From: a virus
Taxonomy: Duplodnaviria; Heunggongvirae; Uroviricota; Caudoviricetes
Strand: one strand, 5' to 3'
IMG/VR virus record: IMGVR_UViG_2585427745_000020
DNA: 51,184 bases
In this document: piece by piece, positions 33,011 to 35,846 of the stretch
Numbering within the stretch: the first letter of the stretch is position 1
Layout: each line of letters opens with the position of its first letter
Notes under the pieces: generated by a model
Databases searched by the model: none
Told to the model about the DNA's origin: nothing
The model's input: only the letters and a program-made list of their open reading frames with translations
Position numbers and translations under genes: made by a program

Positions 33011-33121
33011 ATGCCCTCCATAGTAACCATGAAACAATAATACGATATGTACTTTTAGAATGCAAACAAAAAATACATCTTGTGCATGGATGGTTTTAGT
33101 ACAGAGCGTAATAATAAGGGT
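33011..33121. promoter_or_regulatory. Immunity region (OR operators with divergent PR and PRM)
   Basis: 111-bp AT-rich spacer between divergent cro and cI; individual operators not resolved by eye. Confidence 0.5.
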
Positions 33122-33781
33122 ATGAAAATGAAATGGTATGAACTGGCTAGATCCAGAATGAAAGAGCTCGGCATAACTCAAGAGAAGTTAGCTGAAGAGC
33201 TTGGTATGACGCAGGGTGGAATTGGTCACTGGTTGCGCGGATCTCGTCATCCATCTCTTGACGAGATTGGTGTGGTGTTTAAATACCTTGGTATTGATAA
33301 CGTCTCATTCAACCACGACGGTACATTTTCACCTGTTGGCGAATACTCATCTGCCCCCGTTAAAAAACAATATGAGTACCCTGTTTTTTCTCATGTTCAG
33401 GCCGGGATGTTCTCGCCTGAGCTTAGAACCTTTACCAAAGGTGATGCGGAGAGATGGGTCAGCACAACCAAAAAAGCCAGTGATTGTGCGTTCTGGCTTG
33501 AAGTTGAAGGTAATTCCATGACCGCGCCAACAGGATCCAAGCCAAGCTTTCCTGACGGGATGTTAATTCTCGTTGACCCTGAGCAGGCTGTTGAGCCAGG
33601 TGATTTCTGCATAGCCAGACTTGGTGGTGACGAGTTTACCTTCAAGAAACTGATCAGGGATAGCGGTCAGGTGTTCCTACAGCCACTAAACCCGCAATAT
33701 CCAATGATCCCATGCAATGATAGCTGTTCCGTTGTAGGGAAAGTTATCGCCAGCCAGTGGCCTGAAGAGACATTTAGTTAA
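33122..33781 (+). CDS. cI: CI prophage repressor (HTH N-terminus, S24 autopeptidase C-terminus)
   Basis: 219 aa from MKMKWYELA...; C-terminal half near-identical to lambda CI ([21 protein letters not shown]...), N-terminal DNA-binding domain different. Confidence 0.85.
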
Positions 33782-33906: not shown

Positions 33907-33935
33907 TTGACTCGATAAAGTACAAATCGTACTAT
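33907..33935 (+). promoter_or_regulatory. PL-like early-left promoter
   Basis: -35 TTGACT (33907-33912), 17-nt spacer, -10 TACTAT (33930-33935), upstream of nutL and N. Confidence 0.6.
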
Positions 33936-33975: not shown

Positions 33976-34006
33976 GGCTCTTAAAAATTAAGCCCTGAAG
34001 AAGGGC
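33976..34006 (+). promoter_or_regulatory. nutL (boxA GCTCTTAAAAATTA + boxB GCCCTGAAGAAGGGC)
   Basis: Near-exact match to lambda nutL; boxB hairpin at 33992-34006. Confidence 0.85.
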
Positions 34007-34116: not shown

Positions 34117-34443
34117 ATGGATGCACAAACACGCCGCCGCGAACGTCGCGCAGAGAAACAGGCTCAATGGAAAGCAGCAAACCCCCTGTTGGTTGGGGTA
34201 AGCGCAAAACCAGTTAACCGCCCTATTCTCTCGCTGAATCGCAAACCGAAATCACGAGTAGAAAGCGCACTGAATCCGATAGACCTTACGGTGCTGGCTG
34301 AATACCACGAACAGATTGAAAGCAACCTGCAACGTATTGAGCGCAAGAATCAGCGCACATGGTACAGCAAGCCACGCAGTGAAATGGGTGTGACTTGTGT
34401 TGGTCGCCAGAAAATGAAATTAGGCAGCAAACCACTTATTTAA
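34117..34443 (+). CDS. N: Antiterminator N
   Basis: 108 aa from MDAQTRRRERRAEKQAQWKAANPLLVGVSAKPVNRPIL... matching lambda N; RBS AGGAGA at 34105-34110. Confidence 0.9.
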   Translation: MDAQTRRRERRAEKQAQWKAANPLLVGVSAKPVNRPILSLNRKPKSRVESALNPIDLTVLAEYHEQIESNLQRIERKNQRTWYSKPRSEMGVTCVGRQKMKLGSKPLI

Positions 34444-34451
34444 GGTGATAT

Positions 34452-34703
34452 ATGGAGTTTCATGAAAGTGCGATTTATGATTTTCGCGCTAACGCAAATT
34501 CAGTAAAACCACAGCCAATTGCAGTTCTTTTTAAAACAATGGGTGCGTGGGCTGTTTTATGCTTCGCCGCTGATGACACTGACGCAAGAATGGCAATAGG
34601 CCAAGAGATGGAGATGGACCCGACAAACGATGAATTCATAATTTATGGCGCTCCATCTAATTACTTACTTGATACCTGCAACATTTACAACAAGGCTGCC
34701 TGA
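34452..34703 (+). CDS. Hypothetical protein after N (ral position)
   Basis: 83 aa; begins 9 nt after the N stop; no recognised motif. Confidence 0.5.
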   Translation: MEFHESAIYDFRANANSVKPQPIAVLFKTMGAWAVLCFAADDTDARMAIGQEMEMDPTNDEFIIYGAPSNYLLDTCNIYNKAA

Positions 34704-34839
34704 TGGTGGCCTTCATTTTTGGCATAAACAACAGAATAAATACTGCACTGTGTATTCATTCCAACGAGTGAATACACGGAGCAATGTCGCTCGTAACTAA
34801 ACAGGAGCCGACTTGTTCTGATTATTGGAAATCTTCTTT

Positions 34840-34866
34840 GCCCTCCAGTGTGAGGGCATTTTTTTG
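34840..34866 (+). terminator. Rho-independent terminator (tL1-like)
   Basis: Hairpin GCCCTC-CAGTGT-GAGGGC (34840-34857) followed by ATTTTTTT. Confidence 0.6.
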
Positions 34867-34877
34867 ATGGAGGATAT

Positions 34878-35846
34878 ATGAGTGAAGTAACAGATTTAGT
34901 TGTTATTGAAAAAGCAAATGCAATGACTGTATTTCAGTCTGCAGACCAGATTGAAGAAATCCTTCAAAAGGTTGAACGTGAAGTTATGTCCTTTGTGCCT
35001 GATATCACAACGGCAAAGGGCAGAAAGGAGATCGCTTCTCTGGCGTATAAAGTTGCGCAGACGAAAACATATCTCGACGGTCTTGGCAAAGACCTTGTTG
35101 CTGAACTGAAGGAAATTCCAAAGCTAATTGATGCCAACCGCAAGACAGTGCGCGATCGCCTTGATGAACTGAAAGCCAAGGCGCGCCAGCCTCTTACTGA
35201 TTATGAGGAGGAGCAGGCACGGATTAAAGCCGAAGAAGAAGCTAAGGCAGCAGCTGAAGCTCTCGCAAAGCAAATTGAGTCTGACCATGAAATAGCGATT
35301 TTGATGGATCGCGAATTTGACCGCCAAAGAGAAGAGGCAAGACTCAAAGCGGAGCAGGAAAAGCGAGAGCATGAAGAACGCTTAAAAAGAGAAGCTGAAG
35401 AGAAAGCCAGAGCAGAAGCCGAAGCAAAGGCAAAAGCCGAAATTGAAGCAGCAGCAAGGCGAGAAGCAGAAGCTAAGGCCGCAGCGGAACGTGCAGAGCG
35501 TGAACGCATTGAAGCCGAGCAACGAGCACAGCGCGAAGCAAAAGAGGCAGCAGAACGAGCTGAAAGAGAAAAGCAGGCGGCAATTGAAGCAGAACGCCGA
35601 AAAGCACAGGAGGAGGCTGAACGAATCCGGCGCGAGGCTGAAGCAAAAGAGCAAGCCAGAATAGCAGAAGAAAAAAGAATCAAGGAAGAAGAAGAGCGTA
35701 GAGCAAAGGATAAAGCTCACCGGAAAGAAGTAAATAACAAAATACTTGCTGACCTTATCAAGGTTGGTGCATCAGAAGATGTTGCTAAAAATATCATAAC
35801 AGCCATCGTAAAAGGCGAAGTATTCGCAACAAAAATAACCTACTAA
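34878..35846 (+). CDS. Charged coiled-coil protein with extreme Ala/Glu/Lys/Arg low-complexity core
   Basis: 322 aa; strong RBS GGAGGA (34869-34874); globular N-terminus (about 110 aa), about 170 aa of AEAKAKAEIEAAARREAEAKAAAERAERE-type repeats, short C-terminal domain. Confidence 0.6.
   Translation: MSEVTDLVVIEKANAMTVFQSADQIEEILQKVEREVMSFVPDITTAKGRKEIASLAYKVAQTKTYLDGLGKDLVAELKEIPKLIDANRKTVRDRLDELKAKARQPLTDYEEEQARIKAEEEAKAAAEALAKQIESDHEIAILMDREFDRQREEARLKAEQEKREHEERLKREAEEKARAEAEAKAKAEIEAAARREAEAKAAAERAERERIEAEQRAQREAKEAAERAEREKQAAIEAERRKAQEEAERIRREAEAKEQARIAEEKRIKEEEERRAKDKAHRKEVNNKILADLIKVGASEDVAKNIITAIVKGEVFATKITY

Follow-up and report, generated by a model that had tools for sequence, protein, structure and literature searches.

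The 83-aa open reading frame (ORF) that directly follows the antiterminator gene N in the stretch of DNA analysed here (51,184 nt, IMG/VR record IMGVR_UViG_2585427745_000020, hereafter the window) is, judged by its substitution pattern, a real protein gene under purifying selection. It belongs to an already catalogued family (phrog_2471, ECs1180) and is not a discovery. The gene occupies the ral slot of a lambdoid PL operon, and our comparisons indicate that this slot is a hypervariable cassette hotspot. We tentatively favour a reading in which the product is a host-directed binding protein used for counter-defence or host takeover, Ral-like in role, outside the Ral family and probably not acting on EcoKI.

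The window carries a lambdoid prophage with its early-left operon on the + strand, and the features around the gene are as follows:

33080–33781 (as listed), cI-like repressor gene, upstream of PL
33907–33935, + strand, PL-like sigma-70 promoter TTGACT-17-TACTAT, from a promoter scan
33977–34006, + strand, nutL-like site read from the sequence, boxA-like GCTCTTAAA and boxB hairpin GCCCTGAAGAAGGGC (33992–34006)
34117–34443, + strand, antiterminator gene N, lambda type, 108 aa (Pfam N36, E = 1.5e-26; phrog_271, E = 8.7e-27)
34423–34456, + strand, 5′ boundary or linker of the cassette, GGCAGCAAACCACTTATTTAAGGTGATATATGGA, made up of the N 3′ end, the N stop, the Shine-Dalgarno sequence (SD), the ATG and two bases of codon 2
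34452–34703, + strand, the 83-aa gene (phrog_2471 family), ATG start
34692–34721, + strand, hairpin AAGGCTGCC-TGAT-GGTGGCCTT (stem 34692–34713) and then CATTTTTGG with a T-run, overlapping the ORF stop
34704–34877, + strand, non-coding spacer of ~175 nt, conserved and strongly structured
34839–34858 plus T7, ending at ~34865, + strand, second and stronger terminator, from a terminator scan
34878–35846, + strand, 322-aa coiled-coil “TolA-like” gene, the first gene after the terminators

The placement of the PL-like site relative to the cI-like gene and N agrees with the PL annotations of mEp234 and HK544, and the boxB hairpin was also found by a terminator/hairpin scan. Positions 33977–34006 are called nutL-like for their resemblance to the lambda nutL sequence. 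A previous reading of the sequence alone had described an 83-aa gene at 34452–34703, starting 9 nt after the N stop, and this holds: the ORF is on the + strand with an ATG start, the N stop codon TAA lies at 34441–34443 and the ATG begins at the ninth base after it (34452), with 8 nt in between. The SD of the ORF, AAGGTGAT (34442–34449), is strong and overlaps the N stop codon. At the other end, the last codons of the ORF, AAG GCT GCC TGA, supply the left arm of a 9-bp hairpin, which is probably the first intrinsic terminator of the operon and a leaky one; the mEp234 record annotates the corresponding hairpin as a rho-independent terminator.

The sequence-only reading also placed the gene upstream of a tL1-like terminator and among the first delayed-early products. 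Hairpin terminators do lie 3′ of the ORF, though they are “tL1-like” only as the first terminators after N. They are the same ones that follow ral in lambda, where we take them to be the tL2 region and not tL1. The delayed-early label has to be given up: no terminator-like site was found between PL and the ORF stop, hence the ORF is expected to be co-transcribed with N before antitermination is needed and, by position, would be an immediate-early, N-independent product. As the promoter scan detected no promoter-like site between PL and the ORF ATG, and the terminator hairpin is present and conserved, the gene is better described as a promoterless cassette within the PL operon than as a “moron”.

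Two neighbouring calls deserve mention. One is a 51-aa frame (34645–34800, + strand) that overlaps the gene at its 3′ end and continues across the terminator. VT2-Sakai lists it as orf19 and some other records carry it as a hypothetical protein; it is most likely a spurious call. The product of the TolA-like gene (34878–35846) is highly charged, carries no Pfam domain, falls in phrog_1376, is Sf6 gp33-like and is named “TolA” in some phages. This gene is followed by Erf- and SSB-like ORFs in the window, and by cIII and kil in the near-identical early regions of related phages.

The 83-aa protein matched the phrog_2471 (“unknown function”) HMM along its entire length (E = 1.2e-60, residues 1–83 on profile positions 1–83 of 83). 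The same family includes VT2-Sakai orf20, ECs1180 of Sp5 (O157:H7 Sakai), mEp234 gp34, the HK106 and Gally proteins and UDP0060 of Silas et al. Protein identity to the VT2-Sakai, mEp234 and HK106 counterparts is 98–99%, with Tyr9 in the window allele and Cys9 in the mEp234 and Sakai alleles. Among phages, 55 records carry the gene at 95–99.6% DNA identity, with Gally, mEp234, HK106, JEP4, VT2-Sakai and Stx1/Stx2 phages among them. Of 5426 complete E. coli genomes, 403 (~7%) contain it, O157:H7 Sakai carrying it in both its Stx2 and Stx1 prophages, and all the records listed annotate it as “hypothetical protein”. Its relatives are catalogued hypotheticals. A match to a conserved protein with a defined function would have overturned the earlier description of the gene as uncharacterised; homology and structure searches instead bore that description out, with phrog_2471 as the only match and no fold match.

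Beyond phrog_2471, searches with the protein against Pfam, NCBIfam and PADLOC returned nothing (Pfam and PADLOC at E ≤ 1), the absence of any PADLOC family leading us to reject a known anti-phage defence protein, and the family profile had no match among PDB sequences. A profile search of 1.84 billion representative proteins gave seven matches, five of them members or fragments of this family. The remaining two (P0021, 3126 aa, E = 1e-35; P0022, 1357 aa, E = 1e-13) are tandem-repeat proteins and were judged spurious, their scores being summed over 44 and 12 weak repeats respectively (e.g. VDVLCFG vs WAVLCFA), which is an artefact and not homology. Only two near-identical loci were present in GTDB representative genomes, and no relatives were found outside Enterobacteriaceae prophages. 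Literature searches by accession, PHROG id and keywords retrieved nothing beyond Silas et al. and Mondal et al., both discussed below.

The case for a real protein gene comes from more distant relatives. A search of 5.8 billion proteins recovered 19 clusters, with identity falling to ~70% and with named sources all in the Enterobacteriaceae (E. coli, Enterobacter, Citrobacter and Klebsiella). We compared the DNA of six divergent loci using Nei-Gojobori distances. Against the Citrobacter and Klebsiella alleles dS was >1.8 or undefined (saturated) and dN was 0.17–0.20, and against the Enterobacter allele dS was 0.55 and dN 0.107, giving an overall dN/dS of 0.04–0.20 for homologues that are 70–84% identical. 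The length is held at 82–84 aa in four genera, residues 19–68 are almost invariant and the SD is conserved. Low dN/dS with saturated synonymous sites, together with full-length homologues in four genera, puts the ORF far beyond chance. One alternative is that the frame is non-functional or a hitch-hiking remnant, retained by lying between conserved recombination boundaries. In its favour, no phenotype was reported in the single large screen and no domain was detected; however, the dN/dS values, the conserved length, the invariant core and the conserved SD make it highly improbable, and the selection analysis effectively refutes it.

To place the gene in its slot, we aligned the window with HK544, HK633, mEp234, VT2-Sakai and lambda. 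The 83-aa ORF exactly replaces orf28 and ral, with a shared SD-ATGGA linker on the 5′ side and a shared hairpin and 175-nt spacer on the 3′ side. The upstream stretch common to all six, ...CCAC(T)TATTT(A/G)AGGTGATATATGGA, holds the SD, the ATG and two bases of codon 2; GGCAGCAAA, just before the linker, is common to all but lambda, which shares from ...CCACTATTTAAGGTGATATATGGA onward. A sieB segment separates N from the linker in lambda, whereas in the window and HK544 the linker adjoins N. The linker is identical or nearly so before the 83-aa ORF (window, mEp234, VT2-Sakai and HK633) and before orf28 (HK544); it starts orf28 (MEEEFEEF..., overlapping ral) in lambda and HK544 and starts MEFHES... 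in the window. On the 3′ side identity resumes at ACAACAAGGCTGCCTGATGGTGGCCTT, hence Ral and the product of the 83-aa gene finish alike, with N-K-A-A and a stop codon within this hairpin, and these four residues, encoded by the shared junction and hairpin, are the only ones the protein has in common with Ral.

The linker is not confined to these two arrangements, as it also precedes transmembrane (TM) protein and DUF7167 cassettes in IMG/VR contigs. A scan of IMG/VR with a 14-mer of the linker yielded 30 unselected contigs in which the linker and the conserved spacer are both present. A few types of cassette fill the slot, two of them at once in some contigs:

orf28 with ral or a ral variant, 25 contigs (3 with extra genes)
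orf28 alone, 1 contig
83-aa ORF, 2 contigs, one of which has a 2-TM protein gene after it
MEEQANKIL... membrane proteins, 5 contigs
DUF7167 with other genes, 1 contig

Neither of the two contigs with the 83-aa ORF has ral in the same slot. Divergent homologues keep the same layout, with ...CCACTTATTTAGAGGTGAGGAAATG upstream and a 3′ hairpin, formed from the last codons, that is maintained by compensatory changes, which suggests that the exchanged unit is “SD - gene - leaky terminator” between short repeats allowing in-register exchange. The shared linker and terminator boundaries thus point to in-register swaps of whole genes in lambdoid early operons. Boundary sequences in lambdoid mosaicism are reportedly a phenomenon already described by Juhala and colleagues in 2000 and Clark and colleagues in 2001.

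A boundary motif, (TTTT)GGCAGCAA(A/G)CCAC...(A)GAGGTGA(T)ATATG, recurs between successive early-left cassettes of different phages. Sites were located in the window (34423–34456), in HK633 (locus L003, ~1440–1490), in locus L010 just after 4249 and in the IMG/VR loci L030, L049 and L079, often directly 3′ of a hairpin T-run, and a degenerate copy, TTTTTGGCATAAACAACAG, lies at 34715–34733 of the window. The motif probably supplies the homology for in-register cassette exchange. In HK633 (NC_019719), the annotated 129-aa “VT2-Sap20-like” gp43 (1176–1565) corresponds to the 83-aa gene after loss of 1 nt in GCTGCCTGA, which removes the stop codon, so that the frame reads through across the hairpin into the next linker. 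There it is followed by a 121-aa 2-TM cassette of the orf47 family of Silas et al., starting with the same AGGTGATATATGGAA.

The gene comes early in the PL operon, immediately downstream of an N-type gene, in the window, mEp234, HK633, VT2-Sakai/Sp5 and most of the Citrobacter, Klebsiella and Enterobacter loci. This constancy raises the possibility that the protein assists or regulates N or transcription from PL, for instance by stabilising N against Lon or by modulating termination at the hairpin at its own stop. Neighbourhood with an N-type gene in nearly every homologue (spacers of ~8–60 nt), the overlap of the SD with the N stop and the conservation of the 3′ hairpin through compensatory changes would all suit such a role. 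The identity of the neighbours does not: alleles at least 98% identical sit behind lambda-type N (window and HK633), HK97-type N (mEp234) and Sakai-type N, and divergent alleles sit behind P22-type N_peptide genes. These near-identical alleles also precede either the TolA-like gene or ea10 and travel with different downstream, immunity and recombination modules; the VT2-Sakai, Sp5, mEp234, HK106 and Gally homologues, for example, are the same protein with an N type and a downstream gene that differ from those of the window. The same allele beside unrelated N proteins and modules argues against a phage-specific partner such as N and points to a target common to Enterobacteriaceae hosts. The hairpin is found at the end of ral as well, which makes it a feature of the slot and not of the 83-aa protein, and lambda and many of its relatives function without the gene, hence we consider a role in N or PL regulation quite improbable.

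One exception to the N neighbourhood was observed at locus L006, where the genes called upstream encode a TerB-like protein and DUF3927, with no recognisable N. Locus L007, which has the same allele (Citrobacter-type, GCA_033188555.1, 3723–4595), carries N_peptide (PF25694) upstream and Phage_N_antitermin (PF26859) downstream.

The closest known system is orf28-ral of lambda (Ral, PF11058), which shares with the window the slot downstream of N and ahead of ea10/cIII, the 175-nt spacer, a linker through which the first product (orf28 in lambda) begins Met-Glu, and the terminal N-K-A-A. The two differ in content, a 28-aa peptide and the 66-aa, basic, Cys-rich Ral in lambda against a single acidic 83-aa protein (pI 4.2) in the window. 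The previous statement that the protein is unrelated to Ral stands: BLASTP against HK544 Ral gave no alignment at E ≤ 100, and the protein had no Pfam match at E ≤ 1. The slot also receives other cassettes. “Ral” is the label given to several high-scoring accessory regions by Silas et al. (bioRxiv 10.1101/2023.04.06.535777; follow-up in Nat Commun 2025, PMC12373910), and orf184 and orf47 of the “Ral” region are, like the 83-aa gene, alternative or additional cassettes of the hotspot with a linker-encoded ME start. Both are unrelated to the 83-aa protein in sequence. The orf184 product also ends KAA and is reported by Silas et al. to trigger the gop-beta-cII abortive system, an effect not reported for the 83-aa family member (orf60). 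The orf47 product is a 2-TM membrane protein, as opposed to a soluble one, and orf47-type genes directly follow the 83-aa ORF in HK633 and L084.

That genes in this position are often anti-restriction or host-modulating factors was part of the sequence-only reading, and the position is indeed used in this way (orf28 and ral in lambda, HK544, Sf6, Sf101 and CUS-3). Anti-restriction as the specific function fared less well. The 83-aa protein could be a functional analogue of Ral/Lar that alleviates type I or other restriction-modification, possibly of a family that Ral does not cover; it replaces orf28 and ral exactly in position, would be expressed at the earliest possible time, like known anti-restriction genes, and did not occur beside ral in either of the two unselected cases. 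Against this, it lacks sequence similarity to Ral and is acidic where Ral is basic and Cys-rich, and, as indirect negative evidence, the available notes of the pooled MG1655 screen with unmodified lambda name only ardA, ral and ocr as matches (Silas et al.). The Ral control of that EcoKI screen was HK544 Ral, the same protein aligned here, and it scored. We therefore think an anti-restriction role unlikely. T7 Ocr and ArdA resemble the 83-aa protein as small acidic proteins made at the very start of infection; unlike it, they were scored in the Silas screens, whose available notes do not mention the 83-aa protein as a match. There is no homology to either, and the predicted fold is alpha/beta and not an elongated helical mimic. 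The net charge is modest and varies within the family (−7.4 for the window allele, −1.4 to −4.4 for homologues), which makes Ocr/ArdA-like mimicry unlikely, and with no family match we rejected an Ocr/ArdA-like DNA mimic.

Structure prediction gave limited further information. Two AlphaFold2 runs, on alignments of 10 and 12 sequences, were of low confidence (pLDDT 58 and 57), the family being too narrow for a deeper alignment. Both models agree on an alpha-beta-beta-alpha-beta-alpha order (H5–15, E23–29, E32–38, H42–50, E63–65, H70–81), and Foldseek with the first of these low-confidence models against PDB and BFVD found nothing below E = 0.05. The hydrophobic stretch at residues 22–40 contains K28 and is predicted as a beta-hairpin; homologues have D/E at 31–32, in the turn, which argues against a membrane helix. 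TMHMM predicts 0 TM segments (Silas et al., Supplementary File 3), and with the stretch interrupted we rejected a SieB-like or orf47-like superinfection-exclusion membrane protein. A HicB-like antitoxin was considered from the beta-hairpin-plus-helix pattern, but there was no Pfam match to a HicB/UPF0150 domain and BLASTP against mEp234 HicB returned nothing; Foldseek of the model against PDB gave no antitoxin either, though with a model of such low confidence a fold-level relation to HicB could have been missed.

The mobility of the allele, its place in the ral hotspot, expression expected at the earliest possible time and a small, soluble predicted fold lacking an enzymatic signature together suggest the host-directed role that we favour. 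The gene would be a self-contained accessory cassette in the ral slot, transcribed from PL with N in the first minutes of infection or induction and with translation starting at its own strong SD, perhaps in coupling with termination of N translation. Its product, predicted to be a small soluble alpha/beta protein with no catalytic signature, would act stoichiometrically by binding a factor of the host, or of a resident element, that is conserved across Enterobacteriaceae. The outcome would be counter-defence or host takeover, analogous to Ral in role and not in mechanism or ancestry, with EcoKI-type type I restriction probably not the target.

Several observations weigh against this host-directed reading. 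The mEp234 allele (AFM76313.1), which differs from the window protein only at Y9C, was among the 200 synthesised accessory genes of Silas et al. (UDP0060/orf60 in Supplementary File 3, where it carries no comment), a screen covering ~20 E. coli hosts and 8 phages. In the accessible part of that report orf60 is not among the genes said to sensitise hosts or trigger cell death, nor is any gene-specific phenotype given for it. Counter-defence genes tend to evolve fast, and such strong purifying selection and so nearly invariant a core would be unusual for one; both features would suit a conserved housekeeping target, or a role inside the phage, just as well. Confidence in the structure models is low and they gave no fold match, and a failed deletion in Sp5 (PMC5155283) is not what would be expected of a dispensable accessory gene in a repressed operon.

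This last result comes from Mondal et al. (2016, Sci Rep 6:39036, PMC5155283), who set out to delete, in frame, every Sp5 gene of unknown function, working in an MG1655 lysogen. Only ORF21 (ECs1180, the 83-aa gene) and ORF23 (ECs1184) could not be deleted, 43 other mutants having been made, and the authors proposed that loss is lethal and that both genes maintain lysogeny. Together with the purifying selection on the protein, this raises the reading that the prophage itself needs the gene, as a lysogeny-maintenance or antidote-like factor whose loss kills the lysogen. However, the gene lies in the CI-repressed PL operon with no promoter-like site between PL and its start codon, many lambdoid phages, lambda included, lack it and have ral or other cassettes instead, and the accessible part of the Silas report describes neither toxicity nor rescue for orf60 in ~20 hosts.

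A technical cause is also plausible for the failed ECs1180 deletion. Mondal et al. cloned the flanks in a high-copy vector in a non-lysogen, and PMC5155283 does not state which construction step failed. ORF21 and ORF23 are the only unknown-function genes flanking N, and from the gene order PL should lie between ORF23 and N, thus arms cloned in a non-lysogen probably carried unrepressed PL-N(-cIII-kil), the toxicity of which could account for both failures. A need of the prophage for the gene is accordingly a minority reading that we consider unlikely, and it is improbable that ECs1180-family proteins are immediate-early or low-level lysogen factors on which the prophage depends, for example as an antidote to a lethal activity. 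Were such dependence real, the gene would be truly non-deletable in the Stx2 phage Sp5 and would offer a handle on Stx-prophage stability. The partner in these deletions, VT2-Sakai orf22 (L012 920–1441; Sp5 ORF23/ECs1184), encodes 173 aa and lies between cI and PL. Its counterpart is absent from the window, where cI and PL are only ~130 nt apart; as the 83-aa gene occurs without it, the two are not an obligatory pair.

The significance of these results is modest and they do not overturn current understanding. The gene is an ordinary catalogued hypothetical, yet it is one of the more frequent cassettes to take the place of ral at this well-defined counter-defence hotspot, hence it probably targets a host function that has so far had no known link to phage infection. 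The only genetic study reported that it could not be deleted from a Shiga-toxin prophage (PMC5155283).

The spacer that closes the cassette is itself a conserved element. Its ~175 nt are ~98–100% identical in lambda (between ral and ea10), VT2-Sakai, HK544, HK633 and mEp234, although the flanking genes differ, the gene after it being ea10 in lambda and Sakai and TolA-like in the other aligned phages. An Rfam search of the spacer gave only a RyhB-like match below threshold (E = 0.52), and a preprint on the Pas sRNA concerns other loci. The predicted RNA fold has a free energy of −64.6 kcal/mol (z = −5.4), with a perfect 14-bp hairpin at ~34749–34781 in addition to the strong terminator, and the spacer could be more than a terminator cluster, such as a processing site or an sRNA.
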